In this document: positions 8,160 through 36,854 of the stretch, piece after piece
Layout of the letters: every line of letters begins with the position of its first letter
Numbering within the stretch: position 1 is the first letter of the stretch
Virus record (IMG/VR): IMGVR_UViG_3300028536_000015
Coordinates: 1-64,000 of that record
Direction: 5' to 3' (one strand)
DNA from: a virus
DNA length: 64,000 nucleotides
The notes under the pieces: generated by a model
What the model was told of the DNA's origin: nothing
Seen by the model: only the letters and a program-made list of their open reading frames with translations
The model's database searches: none
Translations under genes and position numbers: made by a program

Positions 8160-8162
8160 TTC

Positions 8163-10649: not shown

Positions 10650-11715
10650 AGTAGCCTTCTTCCTTCATCTCATTAAGGCGCATCAGGTTCCGGGCGTACT
10701 CTTGTGGAGAGATGCCTGAAATCGCCGCTGCTTCCTGCTGCTTGATGCTCAGCTTGATCTTCGAGGAACTGGGCTTGCCGCTATTGGTCGGAGCATCCCT
10801 GGATACTGGTGCTGACACTAGCGTTCTCCTTGCGGTCTGACGGCGGGAGACGGGCTCGCTCTCCTCCTCGTCATCTTCATCGATCTCTTCCTCAGTCTCT
10901 GAGTAGCCAAGGCGATCTTCCAAGTACTGAAAATACTTCTTCGACCCAGGAGTAAATCCCTTATCTTCCGCTTCCACATGGGCACCTTGAAGCCTCATAT
11001 TTTTGCGTTGATCGGTCCAGGCGTCTGGATGAGTTTTCAGCCATTCCTTCTGGCTTGGCAGCAAGGCTGAATTAGCGTCAATCTGTTGTTCCACGCTAAG
11101 ACGCTGCGCAGGAGGAGGATTGCGCTTTAGTTCCTCAGCCTTGGCGACAGCATTGGCTTTTCGTTGCTCAAGGATATTCTTGCCATCCTCAAGCTGGATG
11201 ATCTTGGCCTCAGCCCTGGCAATACGCTTCTGGGCATCCGTGGCGGCCCTATGATCACCATTTGTGAGGGCGCCCTCAAGATCGCGCTGTGCCCCTTCGG
11301 ACTCGCTCTCAGCCGCGCCCATGGCGGTCAGGACTGATTGATACTCCGCTTCTTCGGCGCGCGTGAGATAACCACTCGACTCGCGCTGGGCTTCCTGGAG
11401 ACGGGTCTGGGCTTCGGCCTGCTGCCTCTGGGTCTCGATCTGAACCTTGCGGCCTTCTTCGATCGCAGCCCGCATATCCTCAAGTTGCTTCTTGAGATCG
11501 CTGGTTTCGGCGACACGAGCTTCCTCTTCCGCCTTCTTATGACGGCGATACTCGCGAGCGGCTTCTTTCTTGGACTCTTTTTGAGCGTCCGTATCCGTAG
11601 CAAGTTCCGCAAAAGAGTCCGCAGGATTACTCTCTTCGGTAACTACGGGATCATAGTCGATCTCCACCTCAACATCCTGAGGCTCTTTGTCTCTCGGAGG
11701 CTTAATGCGGGGCAT
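10639..11715 (-). CDS. Scaffolding protein
   Basis: Acidic coiled coil; C-terminal helix AAISGISPQEYARN; lies between portal and MCP. Confidence 0.7.
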   Translation of the reverse strand: MPRIKPPRDKEPQDVEVEIDYDPVVTEESNPADSFAELATDTDAQKESKKEAAREYRRHKKAEEEARVAETSDLKKQLEDMRAAIEEGRKVQIETQRQQAEAQTRLQEAQRESSGYLTRAEEAEYQSVLTAMGAAESESEGAQRDLEGALTNGDHRAATDAQKRIARAEAKIIQLEDGKNILEQRKANAVAKAEELKRNPPPAQRLSVEQQIDANSALLPSQKEWLKTHPDAWTDQRKNMRLQGAHVEAEDKGFTPGSKKYFQYLEDRLGYSETEEEIDEDDEEESEPVSRRQTARRTLVSAPVSRDAPTNSGKPSSSKIKLSIKQQEAAAISGISPQEYARNLMRLNEMKEEGYYDN

Positions 11716-12134
11716 TAGTAAACCATCTCCGGTCTGGGAATGATCAGTTTGACGCTGGTATCGACCAGCATTCTACAGGGGCGCTCACCGACTTTAAGCT
11801 GCCATCCATCCCCTGGACGGAAGACAACCCAATCGCCAATCTGGGCGCGCTGCTCGCCGAACTCCATGTCAGCGGTACTCACAAAAGCAGCGGGACCGCA
11901 TTTCAGGACCAATCCAACCTTGCCCTGATAGTCATCTTCCTTGCGGGTATTGTCCGTCAGAATGATGCCGCCCTTGGTCTTTTCGGGACGCTTCCAGATA
12001 CCTACGAGTATCTGATTATACATCACGTCAACTTCAGAGATGTCACCGACTTCATTGAATATCTGAAATTTATCTTCCTCATCGGGGTGATAAGGAGGAG
12101 GAGCGGCGGCGACCCAAGCTCTAACTTTCCCCAT
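11715..12134 (-). CDS. groES: GroES-like co-chaperonin
   Basis: EKTKGGIILTD mobile loop; GLVLKCGP; IGDWVVF. Confidence 0.85.
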   Translation of the reverse strand: MGKVRAWVAAAPPPYHPDEEDKFQIFNEVGDISEVDVMYNQILVGIWKRPEKTKGGIILTDNTRKEDDYQGKVGLVLKCGPAAFVSTADMEFGEQRAQIGDWVVFRPGDGWQLKVGERPCRMLVDTSVKLIIPRPEMVY

Positions 12135-13003: not shown

Positions 13004-15631
13004 TCAGTCTCCCTTTGATGCAGGCTTAGGCTTGGCTTTAATTGCTTCTATCTTAGCGTCATTGTTCATGCCCGCAATGTGCGCTTTGTTGGCCTCTTGA
13101 AGCGTGGCCATATGCGCCTCATGGGCATGATCGCGCGCCTGCTGAATATGATCAGATTGAATGGATTGCAGATGTTGGTTCTGATCCGATTGTAATTCCT
13201 GCTGATGCTGATGATGTTGCATCAAGAGTTGGACCGCATTCTGCATGGTCTCCTGGCCACCGCTGTCATCCTGACTATGGATAAGGCGCTCTTCCAGAAG
13301 CTTAAGACGCTCCAGAACGATCTTCATCTGCTCTACACGCTCGCGTGAGGCACGATCAGCCGCCTTGTCCTGAGAGGACATCTTCTGGATTTCCATCTTG
13401 AGCTGCATCTGCATAATATTGGATTGCTGAGCTTGCTGATTGGCCTGCTGTTTGGCCTGCGCGGCAACCATGCCTGGATCAGGCGGGGCAGGTGCAGGCG
13501 TGGCGCGGAACAGTCCCTGTGGGTCTATGCCAGCAATCCGCATGGTGCGGACATCAACTGCAATCGGGTCATAAAGAGCTGGCTTGGCAGCAGAAAGAGT
13601 CTGGATGACCGCAGCCTTCGCGATCCTGTGCATGCTGGTTGGATTGTTCGGATCGGCTACGGGAACAAGATTAGCGTCATTGAGCGCTTTGAGGAATTGC
13701 TGCTTCTTCCACGGCATCGCCGGGTGGTTATTGAAACGCCAAAAGGCTTCCGGGTCTTCCTTAAAACGCTCCTTAAGAAGCTTGAACTCGCGCAATTGGG
13801 CGTCGTGTAACCTTTTGTGAACCGCATCCATTACTTTCGTTGCCTGCTCGATCAGAGCCAAGGTGGTTCCAACCGGAGCGTCTTGCTTGCCCTCACCGAT
13901 ATTCACATCAGCAGCGCCACCTGCCCGCTGTCCGACTTCTTCCACATGCTGAATGAACTGAACAAAGGCAGCACCGACATCCTTGTACGGCATCGGCATC
14001 ACGGCCTGACCGATCGGCATGCCGCCGGTATCCAAACCAATTCCAGTACCCGGAGCCACGCGGAATTGGTTGGTTAGCTGCCGTCCGAATTGCTTCTGAT
14101 AGACGAACCCAGGGAAGTTCGCGAACATGCCCGCATCGAGGATTTCTCGCCATGCTGCCGTCAAAGCCGCCGTGGTGTTACCCAGGATGTTGATAAGACC
14201 GATGCCATAGAAGCCCATGGCGTTTACGAAGGGGAAACTTACGAAGTACTCTTTCGCGATAGCGAGCTTGTCTTTTTCTTCCCAATTGCGCCGTACCTGA
14301 AGGACCTTGCGGCTTTCTTTGTGGATCGTGACCACATAGGGAACGTGTAGACCGGTCACCTTGCCTTTATTTTTGTGCTCGAAACCATCGATATCAAGCT
14401 CGCAATAGCACTCGTAAATCTCATGCTCGGCATCCTGGGGGCGCTGGGCCAGAGGCACGACACCCGTTATTTCGTTCTTGATCTGATCGACAGGAGAGGG
14501 CTGAAGATAAGAGGGAGCGGGCATGATATCCGTATCACGATAAGCTCCGACAATCTGCATCAGCTTAAGCGTTCTGGGACGCATCTTGATGATGTGCGTA
14601 ATGCGACCGCAGTTATCCAAATCAGTCGCTGAATTGTTAACGACAAGGTCTTCAGCATTAACACTTTCCGATACGGGTCTACGTCTCAAAGGACAGTTAT
14701 AGACCTTCTTAAATCCCTGGCCGCCAGCGCCAACCCAAAACAGCATGCGATCCGTATCGGGCACGTATTCAGTCGCGACCGCTGTCAGATAGTGATTGAA
14801 GTCTGTTTCGAGCGCCATGGCCAGTTCGTCCGCTGGGTCATTTTGACCATCGGGAATAGCCGGTGACGGGGGCTGCATCATGCCAGTCGGCGCCGCAGAC
14901 GGTGGGGACGGCGGCGCCGATCCTTCAGGGGCGGGCATGCTCGGTGGAGGTGCCGGGGGTCCCGGAGGTGCAGGAGGAGGGGGAGTCCCAGGCGCTGGCG
15001 GCCCTTGCACTGGCTGGCCTTGCAAGGGATTTCCCATCGGTGGACCGCCATTATGTCCCATTTGAGGCGGGGGAGCTGGTGGAGGCGTCGGAGGAGCTTG
15101 CGGCACTGCCTGCTTCGGTCCGAGCGTATTATCGTTCCGAACCTTAACAGGGCCGCCAGCAGGAAGCAGTTCGCCACGGGCATTTGCCTGAAATCTCAAT
15201 ACCGTATCGGCGAGAAGAGGATGCCTGACCTTGGAAATGCCGCCATCGGTACTCACCTCACCGGTCGGGATTTCGAGCTTAAACCCAAGCAGTTCGATCC
15301 CACGCGCGCGCGTTTCTAGCCAGTCCTTGCGTGATTGGATGTCGATTTCGACACCTTCAAGTATCTCGGTAGCGATGCGCTGAAGCTCGCCTTCATCGAT
15401 ATCATCTGCAAGGTTTCTATAAAAATCGTTCTTATCGTCCTCATTTTCGACAGATTTCGGTGCAAAATCGAAGGTAATGGAACCGTCTGAGTTCTTGGTT
15501 TGCTGAACGCCATTCGTAGGTTTCGACTGATCATCCTGGTTGAAATGACTCAAATCCAAAGTAATCGGAGAGGCAAAGGGATTGCCTCCAGGAGGTTGGG
15601 TAACATTTAGCGGGTCTAAGTGATTTGCCAT
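13004..15631 (-). CDS. Portal protein with a Pro-rich insertion
   Basis: 875 aa after TerL; HPLLADTVLRFQANARGELLPAGGPVK and GFYGIGLI; coiled-coil C-terminus. Confidence 0.85.
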   Translation of the reverse strand: MANHLDPLNVTQPPGGNPFASPITLDLSHFNQDDQSKPTNGVQQTKNSDGSITFDFAPKSVENEDDKNDFYRNLADDIDEGELQRIATEILEGVEIDIQSRKDWLETRARGIELLGFKLEIPTGEVSTDGGISKVRHPLLADTVLRFQANARGELLPAGGPVKVRNDNTLGPKQAVPQAPPTPPPAPPPQMGHNGGPPMGNPLQGQPVQGPPAPGTPPPPAPPGPPAPPPSMPAPEGSAPPSPPSAAPTGMMQPPSPAIPDGQNDPADELAMALETDFNHYLTAVATEYVPDTDRMLFWVGAGGQGFKKVYNCPLRRRPVSESVNAEDLVVNNSATDLDNCGRITHIIKMRPRTLKLMQIVGAYRDTDIMPAPSYLQPSPVDQIKNEITGVVPLAQRPQDAEHEIYECYCELDIDGFEHKNKGKVTGLHVPYVVTIHKESRKVLQVRRNWEEKDKLAIAKEYFVSFPFVNAMGFYGIGLINILGNTTAALTAAWREILDAGMFANFPGFVYQKQFGRQLTNQFRVAPGTGIGLDTGGMPIGQAVMPMPYKDVGAAFVQFIQHVEEVGQRAGGAADVNIGEGKQDAPVGTTLALIEQATKVMDAVHKRLHDAQLREFKLLKERFKEDPEAFWRFNNHPAMPWKKQQFLKALNDANLVPVADPNNPTSMHRIAKAAVIQTLSAAKPALYDPIAVDVRTMRIAGIDPQGLFRATPAPAPPDPGMVAAQAKQQANQQAQQSNIMQMQLKMEIQKMSSQDKAADRASRERVEQMKIVLERLKLLEERLIHSQDDSGGQETMQNAVQLLMQHHQHQQELQSDQNQHLQSIQSDHIQQARDHAHEAHMATLQEANKAHIAGMNNDAKIEAIKAKPKPASKGD

Positions 15632-15640: not shown

Positions 15641-17245
15641 TTAGCAAGGATATAAAACTGGTAGTCTTCTTCGGTATTTTAGCAATTCTTCCTCTTCGTA
15701 CTCCGTCTCCTCCTTACGGAGCACAAATCCCATGTCGCGTAAATACCTTAGCGCCTGGGTAGTTGAATCAACCAAGTCATCGTGAGGTGCCTTTGGAAAC
15801 GTAGCACACTGATCGATTACTTTGGTGGCCCAGTCCACATCTGGCGCATAGACCATTCCTTCCGAGAAGATGTGCACAATACTATGGGCGCGAGCGACTT
15901 TATCTCCCTTGCGGGTGGGATTGATTAGCTCGACACCGAAGTTCCCAGAGAAGCCCACGATCTTTCTGATTTCCTGTGCTACCGAAATACCGCTGGCTTT
16001 GGCCTCGATGAGTAGCTTATCGACCGGATATCTTGGTTCGCCAAGGTCTATCTTCCGACTATCCCTAGTGCAGCAGTCTATAACACGTTGAACCAGTTCA
16101 GGAAACCCAAGGCGCTCTTCCCAGGCATAAAGCAGGATGACTCTGGGATTTCCGTACTGATCGCGGAAAACGCCCCAAATCGTCAGGGCTGAAGGATCGT
16201 TCTCTTCTTTTTCGGTATAGGCGCTGTCCAACGAGGCAATAATGAACTCGCAACGAGGGTATTCACCGCTTTCCCAGACTTTCCACCAATCCTGCTTGAT
16301 GATGGCGCCGCCGCGCGGTGTCGGGATTTGCTGGTACTGACCGGCCCACGCATAGGGTCCTTTTGCGTGCTCTAGAGCATCAACGCTCTCTTTAGAGAAC
16401 CTCTCTGGCCACGCCAACTCGCCGTCTTGAGTTCTGGGGTCTTCCCAGATGATCTCCTCGCCTTCGTGATTTGTACCAAGAACGGTAACACAGTGTCTGG
16501 TCTCATCATACCGCATAGGTATCATAAGATGGGTATAACCTAGCTCCCTTGAGATCGCGACACCAGACACATCTTCCGCATGAAGTCTCTGTTGAATAAC
16601 AACAATCGCGCTTTCCTGGGGATTATTCAGGCGGTCCGGGACGACTTCCGTGAACCACATATTGGTTGTGGCGCGAACGGCCTCCGACTCCATCAGCATG
16701 GTATTATTGGCATCATCGATGATGAACCTGTCACCACGCTCACCGACGCCGATACCACCGACCGACGTAGCCAACTTCCATCCGGTTTTATCGTTGGCGA
16801 ATTTTACTTTCGTAAATTGGTCGTTGGAGATGCCAAATCGAGACCCCCATAGGCGCTGGTATCGATCGCTCATGACAATATTTCTGCATCGCATATTGTC
16901 TCGTTCTGTCAAGTGGTTAGAATAAGATGCGCAGACGTATCGATACCATGGTTTATTCTGCGGTCCCCACTCATAGGCGGGCCACATGACATCCGTTAAC
17001 AGGGATTTTGTGAACCCAGGCGAGACGTTTATCAGGAGCCGCTTTATATCTCCACGCGTAACCGCTTCCAAATGCTCAGCAATTGCCGAAATAGCCCAGC
17101 CTTTTACGAAGGGGATCGCAGGTTCGACCACAGGCCAAACATACTCCACGAATGAAATGAGGCTTTTTTCGTATACCTCTGCCTCAAGTTTTTCACGAAG
17201 CTTAGCGGTGGCCTTTGCGATGTTGGCAATTCTTGATTGGTCCAT
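15641..17245 (-). CDS. terL: Terminase large subunit
   Basis: LLINVSPGFTKS Walker A, FIIDD Walker B, SLDSAY and HDDLVDSTTQAL nuclease motifs. Confidence 0.93.
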   Translation of the reverse strand: MDQSRIANIAKATAKLREKLEAEVYEKSLISFVEYVWPVVEPAIPFVKGWAISAIAEHLEAVTRGDIKRLLINVSPGFTKSLLTDVMWPAYEWGPQNKPWYRYVCASYSNHLTERDNMRCRNIVMSDRYQRLWGSRFGISNDQFTKVKFANDKTGWKLATSVGGIGVGERGDRFIIDDANNTMLMESEAVRATTNMWFTEVVPDRLNNPQESAIVVIQQRLHAEDVSGVAISRELGYTHLMIPMRYDETRHCVTVLGTNHEGEEIIWEDPRTQDGELAWPERFSKESVDALEHAKGPYAWAGQYQQIPTPRGGAIIKQDWWKVWESGEYPRCEFIIASLDSAYTEKEENDPSALTIWGVFRDQYGNPRVILLYAWEERLGFPELVQRVIDCCTRDSRKIDLGEPRYPVDKLLIEAKASGISVAQEIRKIVGFSGNFGVELINPTRKGDKVARAHSIVHIFSEGMVYAPDVDWATKVIDQCATFPKAPHDDLVDSTTQALRYLRDMGFVLRKEETEYEEEELLKYRRRLPVLYPC

Positions 17246-17706: not shown

Positions 17707-18258
17707 ATGACGCCGATTGATGAATACGATCAGCCCGTTCTCGCAAAGAGAGCAAATTTTCTACAAACCAAGGGACTATCTCTGGTTCCGATCAATGAGA
17801 ATATTCGGGATTATTCCAGATGGCTCAATGATCCTGAGGTCGTTAAGTTCTCAGAACTTCGCCATCGTTCGCATACCCCTGAAAGCTGCATAGAGTACAT
17901 CAAGGGCTTTGATCAGATCGATAACTGCATGTGGGCGATCTATGCCATCGGTCCTGACATGCATATCGGGAATATCACCATCCACATCGATCCCAACAAC
18001 AACGTCGCTCAGATGGGCATGCTGATCGGTGAAAAGTGGGCATGGGGACGCAAATATGGCCGGGAAGCATGGGGGGCCGTAATGACCTGGGCGAAGACTC
18101 AGAAAATCCGCCAAGTCGAGGCTGGTTGTATGCTCAATAACGTTGGCATGCGCCGCATCATGATACTTTGCGAAATGTTGCATTGCGCAACCGTTGAAGG
18201 TCATTTCTTGCTTGATGGAGCCATTATCTCCAAAGCCATCCACCGGAAGATATTCTGA
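17707..18258 (+). CDS. GNAT N-acyltransferase (RimJ/RimL type, PseH-like)
   Basis: WLNDPEV, HIGNI and IGEKWAWGRKYGREA; sugar-cluster context. Confidence 0.8.
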   Translation: MTPIDEYDQPVLAKRANFLQTKGLSLVPINENIRDYSRWLNDPEVVKFSELRHRSHTPESCIEYIKGFDQIDNCMWAIYAIGPDMHIGNITIHIDPNNNVAQMGMLIGEKWAWGRKYGREAWGAVMTWAKTQKIRQVEAGCMLNNVGMRRIMILCEMLHCATVEGHFLLDGAIISKAIHRKIF

Positions 18259-19070
18259 TGCATAAAACGAAAGAGTTTTGGGACCAACAGGCTGAGAAGC
18301 ATGGCGCTGATCAAGCCGCGACAGCGCCAGACCATTTCTACCGCGATAACATCGAGATCAAGCGCATCGTTGAAGTCATGACGATCATGGAGCCGGAAGC
18401 TATCTTGGATATAGGCTGCGGTAATGGCTATTCCACGATCGAAATCGCCAAGAAGTTTCCGACATCGATGGTGATCGGGGTCGATACTAGCGAAAAGATG
18501 CTCGAAGAGGCCCGAGAGGCCGCCAAGGGCATCAATAACATCACCTTTTTCCAGGGTGATGTCCTTACTCTATCCTGGCATCCGAAATTGCAGCATCAAA
18601 AGTTCGATGTGGTGCTCAGTGTGCGCTGTTTGATCAATCTGGACAACTGGGAAGAGCAAAAACTCGCCATTTTGCAGATGCGAAAGCTTCTGACGCCGGA
18701 CGGTTCTCTGATTTTAGTCGAAAACACCAAAGAGGGACTGGATAAGCTCAATTTGCTCCGTCAGATCGTGGATTTGCCCCCGATCGAACAGCGATGGCAC
18801 AATAATTACATCCCGGAAGACAAATTGAAGCAGTTTGTCGCTGAAAACAACCGAAAACTGTTCCAACTCATGGCAATGGAGAACATCGGGAACCTCTACT
18901 ACATCATTTCGAGGGTGGTTTATGCCAAACTTGCGCAAATGGAGGGCAAAGAGCCATCCTATGATCACCCACTCAATGAAATAGCATCTCAACTGCCTAG
19001 CCTGGGCGATCATTACTCATGTTCACCGAACTATATGATGATCTTAGAGAACATCCCGGACGAAAGTTAA
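18258..19070 (+). CDS. Class I SAM-dependent methyltransferase
   Basis: ILDIGCGNG; RCLINL. Confidence 0.85.
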   Translation: MHKTKEFWDQQAEKHGADQAATAPDHFYRDNIEIKRIVEVMTIMEPEAILDIGCGNGYSTIEIAKKFPTSMVIGVDTSEKMLEEAREAAKGINNITFFQGDVLTLSWHPKLQHQKFDVVLSVRCLINLDNWEEQKLAILQMRKLLTPDGSLILVENTKEGLDKLNLLRQIVDLPPIEQRWHNNYIPEDKLKQFVAENNRKLFQLMAMENIGNLYYIISRVVYAKLAQMEGKEPSYDHPLNEIASQLPSLGDHYSCSPNYMMILENIPDES

Positions 19071-19091
19071 TCAGCAACAAAGGAAAGAGAC

Positions 19092-19367
19092 ATGACACAG
19101 AAATTGGACGCGAAATTCTCTGGCGTAATTTTTAAGATCAAGGATGGATCGATTGTCAGCGACGACGAGTATGTGGTATTCTTGGCAAAGGATACCGCAT
19201 TCTATGAGACACTTCCGACCTATCGCCGTAAGTGCATTGAGCTTGGTGCCGATCAAGAACAGATCGCGGCAGTCGATCGCATGATCGCAAGAGCGACTGA
19301 TTGGCGGCATGCTAATCCCGATCGCTGCAAAGTTCCTGATGCTAAGGGTGAAAAGCTGGTTGGTTAA
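19092..19367 (+). CDS. Hypothetical protein
   Basis: 91 aa with AAGGA RBS; VFLAKD motif. Confidence 0.6.
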   Translation: MTQKLDAKFSGVIFKIKDGSIVSDDEYVVFLAKDTAFYETLPTYRRKCIELGADQEQIAAVDRMIARATDWRHANPDRCKVPDAKGEKLVG

Positions 19368-19392
19368 TTAATCCCGCATCAAGAAGAAAGTA

Positions 19393-20037
19393 ATGGGCAA
19401 GCAGGAAGATATCTTTCTGGAGAGCGAGGGGGACGCGTGGTTTGAGCGAAATATATACAAAGTTCGTGAGGATGTCCACGCAGACCCCGTTATCCAGCTC
19501 GTTCTCAGGCATTTTAATACCGGCGAGCCATTGGGGGTCCTAGAGATAGGATGCTCCAATGGCTGGCGCTTGAGCGAACTCCATAAAATCTACCATTGGT
19601 TCTGTTACGGCATCGATCCTTCAGCCGAGGCCATCAAAAACGGCCTGATGAGGTTCGGCAACCTGGAGAAACTGAACCTTACCCGAGGTTCAGCGACGGC
19701 TCATCCTTATCATTCCGCAACCATGGATATGATCATCTATGGTTTTTGCCTCTATGTGTGCGATCCCGAAGAGCTGTTCGAGATCGTTACGCAGGCCGAC
19801 AATGCTCTAAAAGACGGCGGCTCAATCATCATCCATGATTTTGACGCAGAGTATCCTCATTCTGTCCCCAATCATCATGTAGAAGGATTGATATCTTACA
19901 AGATGGATTGGAGCAAGCTTTGGCTATGTCATCCGGCATATAGATTGGTCGAGAAGGTATCATTTGCAGACGGAACCGCTGTCTGGCTTCTTAGGAAATC
20001 TCAGGGAGATGCGTTTCCGTGCTCATCGGCATCTTAG
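19393..20037 (+). CDS. SAM methyltransferase resembling pseudaminic-acid-cluster-associated methylases
   Basis: QEDIFLESEGDAWFERN; VLEIGCSNG; GFCLY. Confidence 0.75.
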   Translation: MGKQEDIFLESEGDAWFERNIYKVREDVHADPVIQLVLRHFNTGEPLGVLEIGCSNGWRLSELHKIYHWFCYGIDPSAEAIKNGLMRFGNLEKLNLTRGSATAHPYHSATMDMIIYGFCLYVCDPEELFEIVTQADNALKDGGSIIIHDFDAEYPHSVPNHHVEGLISYKMDWSKLWLCHPAYRLVEKVSFADGTAVWLLRKSQGDAFPCSSAS

Positions 20038-20888
20038 GGTTTGGTTCGATTGGAATGCGTCATGGGCGCAATCTCATGGATATCGGGCATCAGGTTGTTT
20101 TCCATGATCCTGGCGTTCTCGGCAGCATAGATCGTGATGTTCTAATCCGAGAGGCGGATGCGGTCATTATCTGCACGCCAACGATACGGCATGCTCTTGA
20201 TCTCTGCGATGTCTTGCAGGCAAGGAAGCATGTCCTGGTTGAGAAACCCATTGGTTATGACTGTCCTCCATATATCTCGGGCCTCATCATGGGCGCGCGG
20301 TCAGCAGCGAGAGATTTGGTAGTCGCTACTGGGTTCATGTGTCGGTTTCATCCTGAAGTTCAGAGAGCAAGGAGCATGATAGATTATGGCTACTTCAACA
20401 AAATCATCGATGTGCAATTCGATGTTTTACAAAAAAATAGCAAACCTGAATACTTGCGTGATGGTGTTATCCGAAATTGGGCTTCGCACGAACTCGACTT
20501 GGCTAGATATCTCTTGGGAAATCTCTGTCTAGAAAAAGCTGATGTTGGCGTTTCTCTCGATCACCAAGACATTTCTATGGTAGCTGATCTCTATAGCATA
20601 GAGCATGACTGTCCTGTGATTATACGAGCCGATTACATTACCAGTCCAGAGTTTAGAAGATTTTCTATTCAAGGCAATAAAGCTGTAGCCGTCGCGTTTA
20701 ATCTAGTGCGAGGAGAGGCCGTCTGGGACCAAACCTACGTGGATGAACTCAAGGCATTCATCAATGCGATCGATGGTAAGGACCCTGGACCGCTGGCAGA
20801 TGGTGCAGATGGTGTCGCGGCTCTTCAACTCGTCATGGACATAAGAGAGAAGGTTGGATTGGAAGATGAGCAAAAGAAGAACATTTAG
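20019..20888 (+). CDS. Gfo/Idh/MocA NAD(P)-dependent oxidoreductase
   Basis: GFGSIGMRH, HVLVEKP and SHELD. Confidence 0.88.
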   Translation: MLIGILGFGSIGMRHGRNLMDIGHQVVFHDPGVLGSIDRDVLIREADAVIICTPTIRHALDLCDVLQARKHVLVEKPIGYDCPPYISGLIMGARSAARDLVVATGFMCRFHPEVQRARSMIDYGYFNKIIDVQFDVLQKNSKPEYLRDGVIRNWASHELDLARYLLGNLCLEKADVGVSLDHQDISMVADLYSIEHDCPVIIRADYITSPEFRRFSIQGNKAVAVAFNLVRGEAVWDQTYVDELKAFINAIDGKDPGPLADGADGVAALQLVMDIREKVGLEDEQKKNI

Positions 20889-21072
20889 ATGCGAGTTATG
20901 TGAAATGAATTATCCGGTAGAACCGGGATGGACTGACGACATGGCAAAGGAGGAGTTTCGTCGTCTTTATCCAGGGCAGCCATTCAAGAATGTCGCCAAA
21001 ATCTGTGATGACTGCCATAAAATGGTCGAGATATGGCGCCAGGAGAATGAGGGAAAGAGGACGCTTCAATGA
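20854..21072 (+). CDS. Small CxxC protein
   Basis: CELC ... ICDDC; start uncertain. Confidence 0.5.
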   Translation: MDWKMSKRRTFRCELCEMNYPVEPGWTDDMAKEEFRRLYPGQPFKNVAKICDDCHKMVEIWRQENEGKRTLQ

Positions 21073-21081
21073 GACTTCCTC

Positions 21082-21591
21082 ATGAAGCCAAAACACAAGA
21101 TATCTCAGACTACGCTCAAGCATCATCTAAAATATGATCCTGAAAGTGGAATATTCTACTGGAGACATTCCACCTATCGAACTGACCTAATTGGCAATCA
21201 AGCTGGGTACATTGATCGACGTGGGTATATCCGCATTAAGATTGGATCGATTACATATCTAGCTCATAGACTAGCCTACATCTACATGACCGGAACTAAT
21301 CCTCCAGAGCTTATCGACCATAAGGATAACAACCGACAGAATAATCGATGGATAAACATCCGTTCAGCTACACATGGGCAAAATGTCTCAAACTCCTCAG
21401 GATGGAAAAAGAGAAAAATAAAACTACCCAAAGGAGTGTACAAACATTCCATGTCAGCAGGATATTTTGCCATGATCGTAGTAGACAGAAAACGTCACTA
21501 TCTTGGCTCCTTCAAAACAATAGAAGAAGCGAAAGCTACCTACATTTCCGCCGCCATAAAATTCAAAGGCGAATTCGCGAGGGCTTCATGA
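21082..21591 (+). CDS. HNH-AP2 homing endonuclease
   Basis: YLAHRLAY, IDHKDNNRQNNRWIN and YLGSFKT. Confidence 0.88.
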   Translation: MKPKHKISQTTLKHHLKYDPESGIFYWRHSTYRTDLIGNQAGYIDRRGYIRIKIGSITYLAHRLAYIYMTGTNPPELIDHKDNNRQNNRWINIRSATHGQNVSNSSGWKKRKIKLPKGVYKHSMSAGYFAMIVVDRKRHYLGSFKTIEEAKATYISAAIKFKGEFARAS

Positions 21592-23576
21592 CTAAAACCG
21601 TTGCCATATGCCAAGCTAGGATGTCCAGTACCCGCTTACCGGGAAAGGTTATGAAAGACCTTGCGGGAAGACCTGTAATAGATTGGGTGGTAGAGGCCGC
21701 CAAACACGCTCCCGGCGTTGACGAGGTCATAGTTGCCACCTCCATAGAACCTGCGGATGACGTGATTGCGGAGTGGGCTACACATAAGGGAGTAGCATTA
21801 TACCGAGGATCGTTAACTGATGTCATGAGCCGATTTGTAGGAGCGGCCAATCAAACCAACGCCGATATTATCGTTCGCTTGACCTGTGACTGTCCTCTGC
21901 TTGACCCGAATGTAATTGGAGAAGTGATCCAACTCAGGAAAATAAAAAATGCAGACTACGCCTCATGTACTGATCCTCCCTCGTATAGTGACGGTCTCGA
22001 TGTCGAGGTATTCACGCGGGGAACTCTGGAAAGCGCCAATCGGGAAGCAACGCGAGGAACTGACCGAGATACTGTTACTCGCTTTATGGTTCGCAATCGT
22101 CATAGGTTTCATGCTGTTAATTTGGTCTGCTCGCTTCCTAATCTCGCTCGTGAACGGTGGGTCCTCGATAGTCCAGAGGATTATGAATTCATCCTGGAGA
22201 TCGCAAAGAGGCTTGGCGGCGGCAGAAATCCACCGTCATACCTTCAGATTTTGTCGATCCTTGATAAGGAGCCATCACTCCGGGCGATAAACAACATGCA
22301 CTCTCGCAACGAGCGCTTCTATGAGGCGCTTGCTGCGGAAGGCTCTAGCAAACGATCATATCATAATTCCAAGATGATGCTAGCTAAGGCTGAGGCTTTG
22401 ATCCCCTTGGGAACGCAGACCTTCAGCAAGAGCAAGCTGATGTTCCCGGAAGGAGCAGCGCCACTGTTCGTAACCCATGGAGATGGGGCCTATGTCTTTG
22501 ACGTGGATGGCAATGATTATGTTGATTGCGTCGGAGGGCTTCTGCCTAATATCCTTGGCTACAGAGACCCCGATGTGGATAGCGCTATCCGCGATCAGCT
22601 ATCTAGCGGGATTAGCTTTAGCCTTGCGACCCCTTTAGAAGAGAAACTAGCGGCGCTGCTCCATAAGCATATTCCATCCGCTGAGATGGTGAAATTCGGC
22701 AAGAACGGCAGCGATGTCACGACTGCCGCTGTCCGTCTTGCGCGCCATGTCACCGGACGAGATATGGTCATGGTAGGTGGCTATCACGGCTGGCACGACT
22801 GGAGTATGGCGGTTAGTGAGCGCCATAATGGCATCCCCTGGGATGTCCAAAAGCTTTCCGATAGTCTGCACGCTGATAAAGAGCGGTTTAGCTCATACGC
22901 CGCCATGATCATTGAGCCTGAGTTCTATTCCAAGGAAGAGCTACAAGGCATCCAAAAACTATCCCTTGAATATGGGTTCCTCTTGATCTTTGACGAGATC
23001 ATCACTGGGTTCCGTTGCGGGTTGGGGGGTTTGCAGAAAGTCCATGGGGTGGCGCCTGATTTGTCTTGTTTTGGCAAATCCATGGCCAACGGCATGCCGA
23101 TATCTGCCTTGGTCGGACTTGAGAAATACATGAAACACATGCCTGAGATTGCTTATTCAGGCACGTTCTTTGGCGAAACACTATCGATCGCAGCGGCGAT
23201 TGCGACCATCGAAAAGTTGGAACGCGAGAGGGTCCCGGTTTGGTTACTGTCCCTTGGTATCTCTGTCTATGCCAATGTTACAACCCTGATCCAGAAGGCC
23301 AGATTGACTGAGTATATCTCATTGTATGGCCCTATGGAGCTAAATCGCATCAAGTTCAAGAACAATGGCGTCCAGAGCCTGTTCATTCAGGAGATGGCCA
23401 AGAACGGCGTGCTCATCATCGGTAGCCACAACCTCAGCTTTGCTCATGGTAAAACCGAGCTGGATATCATCACCAGAGCCTGGGAAAAGACACTGGACAA
23501 GCTTGCTGAAGCGGCGAGTTCCAATATCCTGGATCATCTCGATGGCGGTCTCGTCATGGCGAAAGGCGTCAGATGA
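21588..23576 (+). CDS. Fusion of SpsF/PseF-type cytidylyltransferase and class III PLP aminotransferase
   Basis: ATG at 21588 (ATGA overlap); QARMSSTRLPGKV and RLTCDCP; FGKNGSD, FDEIITGFR and FGKSMANG. Confidence 0.88.
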   Translation: MTKTVAICQARMSSTRLPGKVMKDLAGRPVIDWVVEAAKHAPGVDEVIVATSIEPADDVIAEWATHKGVALYRGSLTDVMSRFVGAANQTNADIIVRLTCDCPLLDPNVIGEVIQLRKIKNADYASCTDPPSYSDGLDVEVFTRGTLESANREATRGTDRDTVTRFMVRNRHRFHAVNLVCSLPNLARERWVLDSPEDYEFILEIAKRLGGGRNPPSYLQILSILDKEPSLRAINNMHSRNERFYEALAAEGSSKRSYHNSKMMLAKAEALIPLGTQTFSKSKLMFPEGAAPLFVTHGDGAYVFDVDGNDYVDCVGGLLPNILGYRDPDVDSAIRDQLSSGISFSLATPLEEKLAALLHKHIPSAEMVKFGKNGSDVTTAAVRLARHVTGRDMVMVGGYHGWHDWSMAVSERHNGIPWDVQKLSDSLHADKERFSSYAAMIIEPEFYSKEELQGIQKLSLEYGFLLIFDEIITGFRCGLGGLQKVHGVAPDLSCFGKSMANGMPISALVGLEKYMKHMPEIAYSGTFFGETLSIAAAIATIEKLERERVPVWLLSLGISVYANVTTLIQKARLTEYISLYGPMELNRIKFKNNGVQSLFIQEMAKNGVLIIGSHNLSFAHGKTELDIITRAWEKTLDKLAEAASSNILDHLDGGLVMAKGVR

Positions 23577-23779
23577 GCACTGTTATCATGAAATTAACGG
23601 TGCCTTCTGATTGGGATGGCCAACAGTTGAAGCCAGCCGGCACTATTGGTTTAAGACAAATCTGTCTAAACCGAACTAACTGGATGGCCCATGATCAGCT
23701 AAGTTCGATCATCATACCTGATGGTGGCCAAATTATCATCAGACGCGATGGTCATACGATCTATATTGAGCGACCATGA
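23573..23779 (+). CDS. Hypothetical protein
   Basis: ATGA overlaps on both sides. Confidence 0.55.
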   Translation: MSTVIMKLTVPSDWDGQQLKPAGTIGLRQICLNRTNWMAHDQLSSIIIPDGGQIIIRRDGHTIYIERP

Positions 23780-24696
23780 AAGTCCTTATCACCGGAGGCT
23801 CAGGTAGCTGGGCGCAGGCTTGTGTTAAACGCCTCCTAGATGACAAGTTGGCTGACCGCATCGTTATATATTCTCGTGGTGAGCACCTTCAAGAGGAGAT
23901 GGCGCGACGCTTTAATCATGATGATCGCCTCAGGTTCGTCATAGGGGATGTTCGTGACCGTGATCGACTTGAGATGGCGATGTATGGGATTGACACAGTT
24001 CTCCATGCTGCGGCCCTTAAGATCGTTCCCACGGCTGAGTATAATCCTTACGAATGCGTGCAGACCAACATCGGAGGAGCTGAAAATGTTGCTAGAGCTA
24101 GTCTTGCTGCTGGCGTACAGCGCGTTATCGCTCTTTCTACTGATAAATCAGTCTCTCCTCTTAACCTCTATGGTGCGACAAAGCTTGCTGCTGAGAAGAT
24201 TTTCGTGGCAGCAAATAATATGTCTGCTGGTCGATGTAGCTATTCTGTCTGCCGCTATGGGAATGTCGTTAATAGTCGCGGGTCTGTGGTTCCGCTATTT
24301 AAACGACTTGCCAATGCTGGAGAACGTCTACCCATCACTGATCCACAGATGACCCGGTTCTGGATGACGCTGGATCAAGCTGTTGATCTCGTGCTGTCGT
24401 CTCTAGAGATGATGAAGGGTCGGGAAATCTTCATTCCAAAGATACCATCTGTGCGAATTGTTGATCTTGCCGCCGCTATTTCGCCAGAGTGTGGGACTAA
24501 GATTACCGGCATCAGACCGGGGGAGAAACTCCACGAAGTCTTGATGACACAAGAGGAAGCCAGAGGTGCTCTGGAGGCCTGGGATCGCTTTATCGTAAAT
24601 TCTGACGGCGTATCCAACATCAAAGAACCAAGGACCTATTCTAGTGATAGTAATGGCGATTATCTTAGTTTGGAAGAAATTAAGAGATATCTATAA
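23776..24696 (+). CDS. pseB: UDP-GlcNAc 4,6-dehydratase (inverting)
   Basis: HAAALKIVPTAEYNP, STDK, YGATK, RYGNV, MTRFW and GIRPGEKLHE. Confidence 0.9.
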   Translation: MKVLITGGSGSWAQACVKRLLDDKLADRIVIYSRGEHLQEEMARRFNHDDRLRFVIGDVRDRDRLEMAMYGIDTVLHAAALKIVPTAEYNPYECVQTNIGGAENVARASLAAGVQRVIALSTDKSVSPLNLYGATKLAAEKIFVAANNMSAGRCSYSVCRYGNVVNSRGSVVPLFKRLANAGERLPITDPQMTRFWMTLDQAVDLVLSSLEMMKGREIFIPKIPSVRIVDLAAAISPECGTKITGIRPGEKLHEVLMTQEEARGALEAWDRFIVNSDGVSNIKEPRTYSSDSNGDYLSLEEIKRYL

Positions 24697-24702
24697 GAGG
24701 GG

Positions 24703-25791
24703 ATGATGGTGAAACTATTCACGACCATAGGAAACGATGAAGAAGAAGCTGTCCTGAGGGTTCTACGCAGAAAGCAGCTCTCTGGATATATAGCCGGGAA
24801 GGATACCTCTGGTGTAGAAGTCAATCGACTAGAGACTAACTGGGCTGAGTTCTTCGGCGTCAATTACGCGATTGCGTGCAATTCAGCCACGTCTGGGTTG
24901 CTCGCGGCCTGCATGGCAATCGGCGTGGGTCCTGGCGATGAAGTTATCGTTCCCTTTTTGACCATGTCTGCCACAGCCTGCGCTCCGAATGTTCTTGGGG
25001 CGCAGATCGTGCTTGCGGACGTTGATGAGAACCTATGTATCGATGTCAACCATGTCGGTAAGCTCATCAATGAGAACACCAAGGCTGTCATCGCGACCAA
25101 CCTATTCGGCCATCCAGCGAAACTAGCACAGTTGCGCGGCATGTGCGACAGCGTCAACGTCTTCCTGATTGAAGACAATGCGCAGGCCATAGGCGCGAAA
25201 GAAGGAACCCGCTACACCGGGACCATAGGTCATATCGGCGTGTTCTCGCTGAACTACCATAAGCAAATCCAGGCTGGTGAAGGTGGCGTGTGCGTCACAG
25301 ATAATTATCTTTTGAACATGAAGCTGCGTGGCGCCATAAATCATGGCGAGCACATGAAGCTCGATTTCCCAGGGCTGAACCTGCGCATGACCGAGATCAC
25401 AGCCGCTATCGCCATAGAGCAACTTAAGAAATTACCAGATATTCTGGAAGCTAAAGAAGAAGTGGCACGCGCCATCATTGGTCATATGAAACGATGTAGT
25501 TACATCAATCCACCTCCGACCCGCGATAATTGCACGAACGTATATTACGCCCTGCCGTTTCAGGTTATTGAGGGCTTCAGCCTCATAAGCGTTATTGCTC
25601 ATTTTCAAAGTAAATCAGGTCTTAATCTCTCGCTGGGTTATAGCAATCTCATGAAACTTAGGATCGGTGATAAATGGGTAAAGGACAAATGCCATAAATA
25701 CCGAGATGTAAGTAGGTTAGTCCTTCTGGAGATGTACAGCGATGACATCACGATGGATAGCCTGAAGCATATGGAGAAGGTATTCACATGA
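24703..25791 (+). CDS. pseC: DegT/DnrJ sugar aminotransferase (PseC-like)
   Basis: NSATSGL, IEDNAQA and SLNYHKQIQAGEGG with the PLP lysine. Confidence 0.8.
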   Translation: MMVKLFTTIGNDEEEAVLRVLRRKQLSGYIAGKDTSGVEVNRLETNWAEFFGVNYAIACNSATSGLLAACMAIGVGPGDEVIVPFLTMSATACAPNVLGAQIVLADVDENLCIDVNHVGKLINENTKAVIATNLFGHPAKLAQLRGMCDSVNVFLIEDNAQAIGAKEGTRYTGTIGHIGVFSLNYHKQIQAGEGGVCVTDNYLLNMKLRGAINHGEHMKLDFPGLNLRMTEITAAIAIEQLKKLPDILEAKEEVARAIIGHMKRCSYINPPPTRDNCTNVYYALPFQVIEGFSLISVIAHFQSKSGLNLSLGYSNLMKLRIGDKWVKDKCHKYRDVSRLVLLEMYSDDITMDSLKHMEKVFT

Positions 25792-26003
25792 CCGACGAGG
25801 AACTGTTAGATCAGATCACCAGAGTTCGCGCGCAGAATAACGTCAATTGGGTGGAACTCTTAAGGATCGCATTACGCGCTGATCCCAAGGCCACCAAGGA
25901 GGTTCTTGGCAAGGTTCTTATCATGGACCTCCAAGTGAGTAGGCTCACCAGAGCCCTGTCCGCGACAGACTGGAAGCCCAGGGACCTGGAGGACAAGAAA
26001 TGA
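25788..26003 (+). CDS. Small hypothetical protein
   Basis: 71 aa, coupled by overlaps; RAQNNVNW motif. Confidence 0.6.
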   Translation: MTDEELLDQITRVRAQNNVNWVELLRIALRADPKATKEVLGKVLIMDLQVSRLTRALSATDWKPRDLEDKK

Positions 26004-27043
26004 AAATAGGCTCACGGGAGATCGGACCGGATCATCCTCCTTATATCGTGGCCGAATTATCTGCTTCGCATCTAGGAGACATCAATAACGTATTCAGGCT
26101 GATCGATGAGGCGAGACATGCTGGCGCTGATGCCGTCAAGCTACAGGCCTACACACCAGATACGATTACGATGGATAGCAAGAATGCTGACTTTCTCATC
26201 AAGGAAGGTCCCTGGAAAGGACGATATCTCTTTGACCTTTACGCAGAAGCTCACGTGCCTTTTTCGTGGATGGAACGTATATTTGATTATGCTCGCAACG
26301 TTCGTTGCATCGAGATATTTGCATCTGTTTTCGACGAGAGCGCGGTTGGTCTCATGGAAGAACTTTATGCCCGTGCTTACAAGATTGCGAGCTTCGAGTT
26401 ATCTCATCTCCCTCTCATCAGGAACGTAGCGGAGACCAATAAGCCGATTATCTTGTCTACTGGGATGGGTTCCACCAAGGAAATCCTGGACGCCATGAAC
26501 GTCATCAACAAGTTCTCTCTCAAGCCTGATATCGCCCTGCTTCATTGTGTCAGCGCCTATCCGACACCTGCCAGTCAGGCCAACTTGCCGGCGCTAGGGC
26601 CTTTGAGCGAACTCCTGGGAGGGAAACATGTGGTTGGTCTGTCTGACCATACTCTTGGTATTGCTGTGGCTGTATCTGCTGTTTGCTACGGTGCGACCAT
26701 CATTGAAAAGCATCTATGTCTTAGTAGGAGCGCAGGTGGCCCTGACGCTGATTTTAGTCTGGAACCTGATGAGTTCACAGCCCTGGTAAAATCATGCCGC
26801 GAGGCATGGGAGGCTACTCGGCCGTCGAAGTCTCCGGATCAGAAGGCAAATCTTCAATGGCGTCGGTCGATTTATGTAACGAATCCAATTTCCGAAGGCG
26901 AGCCTCTGTCCAAGGAGAATATCCGAGTGATACGGCCAGCGAACGGGCTTTTGCCGTCATTTTACCCGTCCGTTTTGGGGCGAAAGGCAAAGGTGGCCCT
27001 GCAACCTGGGACTCCATTATCTCTCGATCACTTACTCTCATAA
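26000..27043 (+). CDS. pseI: Nonulosonic acid synthase (NeuB family, PseI-like) with SAF domain
   Basis: AELSASH, KLQAYTPDTIT, YKIASFE, LHCVSAYP, GLSDHT, IEKH and GPDADFSLEP. Confidence 0.88.
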   Translation: MKIGSREIGPDHPPYIVAELSASHLGDINNVFRLIDEARHAGADAVKLQAYTPDTITMDSKNADFLIKEGPWKGRYLFDLYAEAHVPFSWMERIFDYARNVRCIEIFASVFDESAVGLMEELYARAYKIASFELSHLPLIRNVAETNKPIILSTGMGSTKEILDAMNVINKFSLKPDIALLHCVSAYPTPASQANLPALGPLSELLGGKHVVGLSDHTLGIAVAVSAVCYGATIIEKHLCLSRSAGGPDADFSLEPDEFTALVKSCREAWEATRPSKSPDQKANLQWRRSIYVTNPISEGEPLSKENIRVIRPANGLLPSFYPSVLGRKAKVALQPGTPLSLDHLLS

Positions 27044-27281
27044 TCTTTACAGAAACCGTGCAACCTAGCGCGGCAGCTAGTTTCTTGATGGTCATGGTAC
27101 TCATGTGGACGATCTTGCCGGTTTCATAGGCGGCAATAAACGATTGGGATATCCCAGACGCATGAGCTAGCTGTTCCTGGGTCATATAGGGCGTCTGGGT
27201 CTGTCGAAGCCAGCGGAGGCGCTGGTGGAGCACTTGATGCTCGTTCGAAACCATGGCCCCCTTAGGGCGTCCGCGCGGCAT
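26814..27281 (-). CDS. XRE-family HTH regulator whose 3' end overlaps pseI antisense
   Basis: MTQEQLAHASGISQSFIAAYETGK ... KLAAALG. Confidence 0.75.
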   Translation of the reverse strand: MPRGRPKGAMVSNEHQVLHQRLRWLRQTQTPYMTQEQLAHASGISQSFIAAYETGKIVHMSTMTIKKLAAALGCTVSVKIMRVSDREIMESQVAGPPLPFAPKRTGKMTAKARSLAVSLGYSPWTEARLRKLDSLHKSTDAIEDLPSDPETSTAE

Positions 27282-27654
27282 CGCATTCTTCCATGATCTG
27301 TTCAGCCCGCATGATCTCCTCTTCGGAGAACTCAACCCTGGTATCGATGATTACGTAAGGCACATATGGGTCCAATGGCTGCGCTACGCCTCCTGAAGTA
27401 TACCCCCCTGATCCCGTTTGAATTAATACACCACCATATGGGTATGGAGTGAGAGTTCCGGTTCCGGCGCCGCCCATGACTGAGTGTGGGTATGATGTTA
27501 GTGTACCCGTTACCACATTAGAGCCAACATTAGAGTTCTGGGGGGAAATCACCCATCCTGGGTTTTGGTTATATTGGGCGCTATAGGCTTGGTTTGAGAC
27601 CGCGATCTGATCTGTGGCTACACTGTAGCCTGGGTGGGTGGTTTTACTTGCCAT
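27262..27654 (-). CDS. Hypothetical protein
   Basis: ATG at 27654 after GAGGAG. Confidence 0.5.
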   Translation of the reverse strand: MASKTTHPGYSVATDQIAVSNQAYSAQYNQNPGWVISPQNSNVGSNVVTGTLTSYPHSVMGGAGTGTLTPYPYGGVLIQTGSGGYTSGGVAQPLDPYVPYVIIDTRVEFSEEEIMRAEQIMEECDAARTP

Positions 27655-32955: not shown

Positions 32956-33165
32956 TCATCTCAAGAAGTCGTCTATGGCTGCGATCAGGTCCTCGACGTA
33001 GGAGCTGCCCCAGTCTTTCGCGATGGTTCTGGACTTCAGCAGCACGAGGAACTCAGAAAGCATCGCGCGGCTTTTGGCAGTAGGCGAAGTTACCAGCGCA
33101 TGGAAATTAGCCTCGTTGCCTCCAGCGGCGACGTGAGGCATTTGCTGTTTGGCGGGAGTTACCAT
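32956..33165 (-). CDS. Hypothetical protein
   Basis: Packed ORF. Confidence 0.5.
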   Translation of the reverse strand: MVTPAKQQMPHVAAGGNEANFHALVTSPTAKSRAMLSEFLVLLKSRTIAKDWGSSYVEDLIAAIDDFLR

Positions 33166-36783: not shown

Positions 36784-36854
36784 TGTTTCGGCATGGGCAG
36801 GGAATTATACCTGCCCATTGCGAAGCATTATCGCTTCACAAGAGGGAAATTACC

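Follow-up and report, generated by a model that had tools for sequence, protein, structure and literature searches.

A terminase-adjacent operon of an environmental tailed phage predicted to make a pseudaminic acid-type sugar

The window analysed here is a stretch of 64,000 nucleotides (nt), bases 1–64000 of the 73,364 bp virus record IMGVR_UViG_3300028536_000015, which has an estimated completeness of 98% (CheckV) and is marked 'linear', without terminal repeats. At positions 17707–27043 the plus strand carries an operon of 13 open reading frames (ORFs), divergent from the large terminase gene (terL), whose products, judged by the protein families they belong to, very probably make a pseudaminic acid (Pse)-type sugar activated with cytidine monophosphate (CMP). 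Seven of the twelve junctions between the genes overlap, five of them by 4 nt or 1 nt, and the remaining gaps are 6–25 nt long. A plus-strand gene set at these positions, divergent from terL, had been proposed in a first-pass annotation, and the family assignments confirm it; the enzymes listed there (PseB, PseI, a GNAT acyltransferase, an aminotransferase and a cytidylyltransferase) are all present, but the list omitted two methyltransferases, an oxidoreductase and an HNH endonuclease.

The core enzymes PseB and PseI are both of the pseudaminic acid type, as judged from family models and structural relatives. PseB (23776–24696, plus strand), the inverting uridine diphosphate (UDP)-N-acetylglucosamine (GlcNAc) 4,6-dehydratase of the first committed step, matches Polysacc_synt_2 (E 6e-92) and scores 400.4 bits with TIGR03589, 7 bits under the cut-off of 407.75, and far lower, at 240.9 bits, with FnlA. 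Its best match in the PDB is 2gn4, a UDP-GlcNAc C6 dehydratase (328 bits), and the STDK and YGATK motifs are conserved in the alignment. PseI (26000–27043, plus strand), the pseudaminic acid synthase, has a NeuB domain (E 9e-74) together with a SAF domain, and scores 384.1 bits with TIGR03586, above the cut-off of 340.25, compared with 252.3 bits for the NeuB model; its best PDB match, 8h2c, is a pseudaminic acid synthase. Matches to PseI at E 1e-40 or better are found in 89 of 401 sampled alphaproteobacterial genomes, the best with 51–52% identity. In a tree made by a quick method only, with cellular rows restricted to Alphaproteobacteria and rows with alignments under 250 residues dropped, the PseI proteins of the window and of a sister virus, L002, branch apart from the 13 alphaproteobacterial rows at weakly supported nodes (84, 82), a hint that the gene was not acquired recently from the sampled bacteria.

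Candidates for the PseC and PseH steps are also encoded. The DegT/DnrJ/EryC1 sugar aminotransferase at 24703–25791 (plus strand; PF01041, E 9e-64), the PseC-step candidate, contains the Lys-containing motif and scores 161.7 bits with the PseC model and 156.8 bits with LegC, both far under cut-offs of about 420. Its top PDB matches are other DegT enzymes, and 2fn6 (described as 'aminotransferase'), which we take to be Helicobacter pylori PseC, scores 89.9 bits. Identity is 26–30% to the PseC proteins encoded beside PseB in bacterial clusters, and 44% to another DegT enzyme in L125. The GNAT acyltransferase is the first gene of the operon (17707–18258, plus strand; Acetyltransf_3, E 4e-16) and is a candidate for N-acylation of the 4-amino sugar; its L002 orthologue is 59% identical, and that of L006, a viral contig of more distant kin, is 33% identical and matches PseH weakly (29.6 bits).

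The cytidylyltransferase was taken at first for a stand-alone gene, and this has to be revised, as it is one half of a 662 amino acid (aa) fusion protein (21588–23576, plus strand) with its true start at the ATG at 21588, overlapping the stop codon of the HNH endonuclease gene. The N-terminal half is an SpsF/FlmC-type cytidylyltransferase (CTP_transf_3, E 7e-28) that matches PDB 6oew, annotated 'cytidylyltransferase', at E 2e-28, and the C-terminal half is a class-III pyridoxal phosphate (PLP) enzyme resembling glutamate-1-semialdehyde aminomutase (Aminotran_3, E 5e-41); no mention of the code 6OEW was found in papers. When metagenomic relatives of the fusion were sought, 7,559 were scored, and all 120 of those listed have both Aminotran_3 and CTP_transf_3 at a query cover of 72–100%, many of them on contigs of 70–77 kb. 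A contig scan with the fusion protein alone gave just distant aminotransferase matches, in Chloroflexota and in one Pelagibacteraceae metagenome-assembled genome. Full-length orthologues with 37–49% identity occur in 13 of the 401 sampled alphaproteobacterial genomes, and in the five bacterial genomes tested a true PseG gene (201–258 bits) lies directly downstream of the fusion gene each time. The order PseB-PseC-fusion-(PseG)-PseI is seen in L127, L128 and L131, with PseI within a few kb of the fusion. By its position, the fusion appears to take the place of PseF in the sampled alphaproteobacterial Pse clusters, and because the gene sits at the PseF position there, the cytidylyltransferase domain is presumed to be the CMP-nonulosonate synthetase that performs CMP activation. 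In an eLife paper (PMC7591256), Caulobacter FlmC is described as cytidylyltransferase-like and without homology to PseF; its gene immediately precedes flmD (PseG), and the protein serves as the sixth enzyme in a six-enzyme reconstitution in Escherichia coli. On this description, FlmC may be a member of this fusion type.

Three further genes are candidates for tailoring of the sugar. S-adenosylmethionine-dependent methyltransferase 1 (MT1; 18258–19070, plus strand) matches Methyltransf_31 (E 3e-21) and Methyltransf_25 and has 73% identity to its counterpart in L002, and methyltransferase 2 (MT2; 19393–20037, plus strand) matches Methyltransf_25 (E 6e-11) with 58% identity in L002 and 40% in L006. 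The third encodes an NAD-dependent sugar oxidoreductase of the Gfo/Idh/MocA family (20019–20888, plus strand; GFO_IDH_MocA, E 3e-7), with weak NCBIfam matches to UDP-GlcNAc 3-dehydrogenase and inositol 2-dehydrogenase and with sugar and inositol dehydrogenases as its PDB relatives; the GFGSIG and EKP segments in its sequence are presumably the family motifs.

The remaining plus-strand ORFs are small or inserted. Two of those with no family match are conserved in L002: orf72 (20866–21072), which is small and Cys-rich, with 49% identity, and orf71 (25788–26003; 71 aa), with 66% identity there and 37% in L006. The other two, orf91 (19092–19367; 91 aa), a variable insert, and orf68 (23573–23779; 68 aa), likewise match no family and were not found in L002. 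In contigs of three other sequencing runs position 19063 is joined to 19389 with only 'GG' between, so that orf91 is an indel. A free-standing HNH_3 and AP2 homing endonuclease (21082–21591; HNH_3, E 6e-11) is inserted between orf72 and the fusion gene; it is absent between their orthologues in L002, and other runs show a drop in depth and contigs that skip 21073–21989. Both orf91 and the HNH gene are thus present in some strains and absent in others. The first ~400 nt of the fusion gene are poorly covered in other runs, as would fit divergence around a homing site. Three HNH homing endonucleases were noted in the genome: besides the operon copy, there is one between the major head gene and the tail genes (7353–8171, minus strand) and another among the tail-fibre genes (L032 3599–4147, minus strand, corresponding to about 66598–67146 of the record).

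The operon begins with a ribosome binding site (RBS) used elsewhere in the phage, as the first-pass annotation had proposed. The motif AGAGGGAAA occurs in 13 exact copies, each 1–11 nt ahead of an ATG on the coding strand, and when up to one mismatch is allowed there are 34 matches against 16.5 ± 4.0 expected, a number that none of 100 shuffles reached and about twice the frequency in shuffled sequence. One copy, at 17696, stands ahead of the GNAT gene. A scan of the operon region for sigma-70 promoters and terminators gave background level only; a terminator-like hairpin lies at 27065–27080, just 3' of PseI. The operon forms a transcription unit separate from the structural genes, on the opposite strand. 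Convergent with it is an ORF (26814–27335, minus strand) for a Cro/C1-type HTH_3 protein, the last ~75 codons of which are antisense to the 3' end of PseI; only 75% of this protein aligns in L002, and the overlapping tail may be non-coding. A short hairpin repeat, GCGAAGC-ATTA/xxxx-GCTTCA, is found in the window at 36540–38600 (plus strand) directly upstream of the AGAGGGAAA RBS of at least four short early-region ORFs, with copies before 36841, 37156, 37828 and 38119; another copy stands at a greater distance ahead of 36587. The repeat, which is absent from the sugar operon, looks like a recurring regulatory or processing signal.

The divergent neighbour terL (15641–17245, minus strand), identified by tblastn to annotated large terminases (best 46% identity), anchors the operon in a phage genome; it is 83% identical in L002 and adjoins the same operon there. 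A complete sister genome, G001, which was independently assembled, is 73,677 bp long with direct terminal repeats (100% complete) and has the operon beside terL in the same order, without the HNH gene and orf91. The more distant contig L006 retains eight of the genes (GNAT, MT2, Gfo, fusion, PseB, DegT, orf71 and PseI). Runs labelled as soil metagenomes from four studies contain this sequence or close relatives, and contigs of four other soil-labelled runs (three further studies) span terL, the intergenic region and the operon and continue past PseI, covering 30 of 30 bins from terL to beyond PseI in three of the runs and 29 in X6. The intergenic region and operon start are bridged in four contig records from other studies, although at a few hundred bases each these contigs are alone no proof of long-range contiguity. 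No match to the operon was found by megablast against GenBank phages, and a NeuB relative is present in only 3 of 50,697 GenBank phage records, in each case with 31% identity or less. Because of the synteny in the sister genome, the presence of NeuB in relatives and the contigs from other studies, we regard the operon as phage-owned and a chimeric assembly or a stretch of host flank as very unlikely. The earlier view that this is phage DNA and no flanking host sequence is thereby upheld, given a virus record that is 98% complete, the terL-adjacent synteny in G001 and NeuB in 14 of 15 relatives.

The missing piece is PseG. The TIGR03590 model has no match at E 1 in six-frame translations of four viral records, those of the window's genome (G000), its sister G001, a distant relative (G005) and an unrelated phage (G002), and the phage would therefore rely on a host PseG or on another hydrolase. 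Two stand-ins within the phage were considered and rejected: a metallophosphoesterase at 33159–33773 has no support as a UDP-sugar hydrolase beyond its superfamily, and the four small operon ORFs have no family match and no obvious enzyme motif. To call this a near-complete system, as was done at first, is an overstatement, as it is without PseG, has only candidates for the PseC and PseH steps, and has a cytidylyltransferase that does not qualify as a PseF equivalog.

A plausible sequence of reactions can nonetheless be proposed. PseB would dehydrate and invert UDP-GlcNAc, as its family assignment indicates; the DegT aminotransferase is predicted to aminate C4 and the GNAT enzyme to acylate the C4 amine; and UDP would be removed by the PseG of the host or another hydrolase, the phage having none of its own. 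PseI, again by family assignment, would then condense the hexose with phosphoenolpyruvate, and the SpsF/FlmC-type cytidylyltransferase domain would activate the product with CMP. More speculatively, the class-III PLP domain, the Gfo oxidoreductase and the two methyltransferases could tailor the sugar, for example by oxidation, amination and methylation; the presence of these extra enzymes suggests a tailored derivative, the exact product of which is not deducible from sequence. In the final step a Maf/GT42-like protein encoded at 3437–4306 would O-glycosylate virion proteins during assembly.

The gene at 3437–4306 lies on the minus strand among tail and structural genes, and the protein has a conserved core at residues ~63–286 (~225 residues). 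It had been named as the transferase of the system, which was an overstatement: the ORF gives weak, concordant signals of Maf and GT42, but it is a minus-strand gene with no family above threshold, and neither Pfam, NCBIfam nor PHROGs has a match to it. Maf (motility-associated factor) proteins are flagellin nonulosonate transferases. Among 44 close relatives, the Maf family PF01973 is the most frequent sub-threshold match (9 of 44, best E 0.039), and in the ESM Atlas PF01973 is the nearest annotated neighbour of the protein. A profile of 78 diverse members (A3) searched against the PDB ranked the GT42 enzymes Cst-I and Cst-II first (E 0.22–0.82), around a G-x-D motif, and one of the 78 members matches the CST-I model (E 0.092). 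Alignment by hhalign to a phage PF01973 family gave a P value of 0.0035, and with relaxed settings both an N-terminal G-x-x-P-S segment and the G-x-D helix were aligned in order over 203 columns. Two other comparisons were discarded: another profile of the protein (A1) against the PDB gave coiled-coil noise only, and hhalign of A1 or A3 against a two-sequence alignment (A2) was uninformative.

The likeness to Maf (PF01973) and to GT42 Cst-I/II thus lies in a G-x-x-P-S segment followed by a small-residue helix that ends in G-x-D, both collinear with the phage PF01973 family, the second of which also aligns with Cst-I/II. The gene, moreover, co-occurs with a nonulosonate pathway, and the protein has no obvious membrane segment by eye. 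The family differs from Maf and GT42 in the spacing of its motifs and in its own invariant residues (H108, E193, Q197 and Y230), and it is found in virus collections and not in the 401 alphaproteobacterial genomes. Taking these features together, we consider it probable that the protein is a nonulosonate transferase.

The transferase family is large. A word-indexed search returned 911 matches and a full HMMER search 4,336 cluster representatives, and 339 loci were confirmed in IMG/VR; none was found in the 401 sampled alphaproteobacterial genomes, in a search that, as a positive control, recovered the family in four of five viral records. Members with 33–35% identity lie 4–9 kb from PseI on two other, unrelated viral contigs, L004 and L005. 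G002, the unrelated complete phage that also encodes PseI, carries a pair of genuine PF01973 genes, scoring 88.5 and 83 bits; the first is positioned one ORF downstream of the gene for the major head protein, and the second lies one ORF beyond the first.

The surroundings of the candidate transferase are those of a virion gene module, with the structural and packaging block reading from 17245 down to 214 on the minus strand. Besides terL, this includes a portal (13004–15631; phrog_1216), a major head protein (8225–9139; phrog_371, E 6e-11), and tail proteins at 5045–6043 and 1234–1917 with PHROG matches, the latter a 227-aa, extremely glycine-rich protein in which residues 16–55 match a tail-fibre-assembly PHROG. 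Virion and tail-fibre proteins are likewise encoded on the minus strand at the opposite end of the record. Directly downstream of the candidate transferase, at 2955–3437 (minus strand), is a small structural-module protein rich in Ser and Thr (28%) that has no PHROG match, and several structural proteins that flank the transferase have a Ser/Thr content of 25–31%. Both the 2955–3437 protein and the major head protein are possible acceptors of the sugar.

Presence of the candidate transferase is associated with presence of the pathway. A NeuB/PseI gene is encoded in 14 of the 15 viral genomes at least 90% complete that carry a gene like that at 3437–4306, and in 15 of 20 over all records searched. 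The records G008, G020 and G021 have only short NeuB-like frames (220–244 aa, model positions 1–120), and in G020 and G021 the cytidylyltransferase stands alone without its aminotransferase half. Together with G018, discussed below, these records (G018, G008, G020 and G021 were reached through L096, L047, L108 and L110, respectively) point to remodelling or loss of the pathway in part of the relatives.

The phage is probably virulent, a lifestyle suggested by the lack of an integrase match and by the terminal repeats of sister genomes: PF00589 (Phage_integrase, the tyrosine integrases) has no match in any of the four records G000, G001, G002 and G005, serine recombinases not having been searched for, and the sister genomes have direct terminal repeats. 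The HTH_3 protein at 26814–27335 is present and is not specific to lysogeny. An alphaproteobacterial host is likely given a homologue of the alphaproteobacterial cell-cycle regulator GcrA (50044–50568, minus strand; PF07750, E 2e-22) and terminase relatives, the nearest of which include those of Roseobacter, Paracoccus and Rhizobium phages. The GcrA homologue is itself a possible host-takeover factor.

One interpretation of these findings is that a lytic phage makes a tailored CMP-Pse-type sugar and that the 3437–4306 protein attaches it to the virion. As a whole, we hold this reading with about equal measures of belief and doubt; that virion proteins are the acceptor is, taken by itself, a tentative proposal that at best is evenly balanced. 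Virion use is nevertheless the best-supported reading, resting on the position of the gene, the restriction of its family to viruses and sub-threshold homology. The claim of virion coating in the first-pass annotation was stated too strongly, having been drawn from gene position.

Several observations count against this interpretation. With regard to the transferase, the protein passes no family threshold, PF01973 fails to match the window's genome even when E values up to 10 are allowed and matches none of the 78 diverse members at E 0.1, the PDB E-values of the transferase profile are only 0.2–0.8, and hhalign at default settings gives a probability of 9% over 22 columns. With regard to the pathway, PseG is missing in the four viral records searched, so the pathway is not self-sufficient as written; TIGR03585 (PseH) matches neither G000 nor G001 at E 1 and the GNAT protein has no NCBIfam match; the DegT enzyme is not closest to PseC; and the cytidylyltransferase scores 32.8 bits with the PseF model TIGR03584, against a cut-off of 205.7. 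Because of these last three results, the stereochemistry and the final product are uncertain. The co-occurrence with NeuB was counted among related phages, the genomes of which are not independent, and the complete genome G018 (75,040 bp) has the 3437-like gene and the fusion but no NeuB match. Finally, GT42 enzymes act on lipooligosaccharide, so that the acceptor may instead be a host glycolipid, and with the operon on the strand opposite to the structural genes, co-expression with the late genes is not implied by the layout.

A serious rival, which we nonetheless think rather unlikely, is that the CMP-Pse-type sugar modifies flagellin, capsule or lipopolysaccharide of the host during infection, so as to block superinfection, to free progeny from debris or to supplement a host pathway that the phage needs; transfer would be performed either by the 3437–4306 protein on a host acceptor or by host transferases. 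The lack of PseG in the phage would agree with a host in which a Pse pathway is already in place, PseI being common in Alphaproteobacteria (89 of the 401 genomes), and the solved structures closest to the transferase motif, Cst-I and Cst-II, are those of lipooligosaccharide sialyltransferases. The separate transcription of the operon, from the strand opposite to the structural genes, also agrees with host remodelling, and there is published precedent in prophage enzymes reported to alter Pse in Acinetobacter capsules (PMC12053666, PMC6586298). However, with no integrase and with terminal repeats the phage has the signs of a lytic lifestyle, for which lasting conversion of the host surface is less obviously useful. 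The location of the transferase in the structural module and the absence of its family from all 401 alphaproteobacterial genomes would be unexpected for an enzyme that acts on a conserved host acceptor, and in G002 the Maf-type genes similarly come after the major head gene, separated from it by one ORF.

It is improbable, although less easily set aside than the alternatives that follow, that the CMP-sugar is made and the 3437–4306 protein is uninvolved, having a role in virion structure or assembly and a motif that resembles Maf/GT42 by chance, with transfer left to the host or to an unrecognised phage enzyme. All of the similarities to Maf and GT42 are indeed below significance, the gene and the operon lie 13 kb apart and on opposite strands, and G018 retains a 3437-like gene without NeuB. 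Against this, four methods converge on two related nonulosonate-transferase families out of thousands, the distant members with 33–35% identity are 4–9 kb from PseI on L004 and L005, and the fusion gene is still present in G018.

Attachment of the sugar to phage DNA, as hypermodification against restriction, which the first-pass annotation had named as an alternative, appears highly improbable. Glycosylated DNA is known in other phages, but there is no gene of the thymidylate synthase or hydroxymethylase families in the genome, and the scanned proteins include neither a DNA glycosyltransferase nor a member of a base-modifying family. What the candidate transferase resembles are nonulosonate transferases that act on protein or lipid, and no nonulosonate on DNA was found in the literature searched. 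Least credible of all is that the locus is an artefact (host flank, prophage cargo or a chimeric assembly), since the slightly lower G+C content of the operon (0.46–0.51, compared with 0.52–0.55 in the structural region) and the 'linear' record without terminal repeats are outweighed by the same terL-adjacent operon in an independently assembled complete genome that has such repeats, NeuB in 14 of 15 near-complete relatives, the phage's own RBS motif at the operon start, a phage-type homing endonuclease within it, and contigs of other studies that bridge the intergenic region and operon start.

Elsewhere in the window are genes for a DnaB-like helicase, AAA ATPases, a YqaJ exonuclease, an ERF recombinase and a DUF2201 metallopeptidase. 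Upstream of the last of these, which has a VWA-like domain, the ORF at 40732–43344 (plus strand) has a sub-threshold match to AAA_7 over residues 15–47 (E 8e-4; 19.4 bits, the cut-off being 25.8), and the two would form an ATPase/VWA pair in the replication region if the ATPase assignment holds. A 139-aa ORF after the portal region (11715–12134, minus strand) resembles a GroES-type co-chaperonin by eye. In the tail-fibre region, a 184-aa ORF (L032 3048–3602, minus strand, about 66047–66601 of the record) matches the acetyltransferase phrog_1249 (E 3e-6) and no Pfam family, and may have a part in the glycan system or in modifying a receptor.

If the reading of virion decoration is extended to the family as a whole, a widespread environmental tailed-phage lineage would decorate its virions with a tailored Pse-type sugar by means of a large unrecognised transferase family (4,336 cluster representatives, remotely related to Maf and GT42), a possibility that we advance with some reserve; if true, sialic acid-like coats would be a common feature of soil and water phage particles. 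Nonulosonic acids are surface sugars of bacteria and animals on which recognition by immune systems, lectins and phages depends, and the operon implies that phages are not limited to recognising or trimming these sugars and can make them. Should the acceptor be the virion, this would be the first sialic acid-like coat on a bacteriophage, with relevance to particle stability, adsorption, avoidance of host decoys and recognition by other organisms. A large unannotated phage protein family gains a testable function, and an uncharacterised cytidylyltransferase-aminotransferase fusion, common in alphaproteobacterial Pse clusters, is brought to notice.

Compared with the bacterial CMP-Pse pathway (PseBCHGIF), the phage has a clear PseB and PseI, a DegT aminotransferase, a GNAT enzyme and a cytidylyltransferase, and the fusion is the same gene that is found between PseC and PseG in the sampled alphaproteobacterial Pse clusters. 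It differs from the bacterial clusters in being phage-encoded, in lacking PseG and in its order, with GNAT first and PseB-DegT-PseI after the fusion; in the addition of methyltransferases, a Gfo-type oxidoreductase, small phage ORFs and a homing endonuclease; and in its DegT enzyme, which at 26–30% identity is not an orthologue of the cluster PseC. The system is one of virus-encoded glycosylation using a borrowed bacterial pathway, a trait conserved across a widespread phage lineage. Freeman et al. reportedly described virion glycosylation in mycobacteriophages in 2023, and giant viruses have sugar-nucleotide pathways. In common with these, the virus-encoded genes lie with or near structural genes and are presumed to act on capsid and tail proteins, whereas this phage carries a multi-step pathway for a nine-carbon acidic sugar; to our knowledge no nonulosonate pathway occurs in mycobacteriophages or giant viruses.

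The first-pass annotation knew of no characterised phage example, and we likewise find none in the openly licensed literature, in keeping with NeuB relatives in just those three GenBank phage records; no phage-encoded pseudaminic acid pathway is described in the Creative Commons-licensed PMC papers and bioRxiv preprints, subscription journals being outside this scope. The nearest published phage systems are the virion glycosylation of mycobacteriophages, which is based on glycosyltransferases, and Pse modifiers of the capsule encoded by Acinetobacter baumannii prophages, namely EpaA/EpaB (PMC12053666) and O-acetyltransferases (PMC6586298). The capsule modifiers too are phage-borne enzymes that act on Pse-type sugars, but they comprise just one or two genes, with which temperate phages alter the capsule sugar of the host, whereas the phage described here, which has no sign of lysogeny, carries the synthesis pathway itself.

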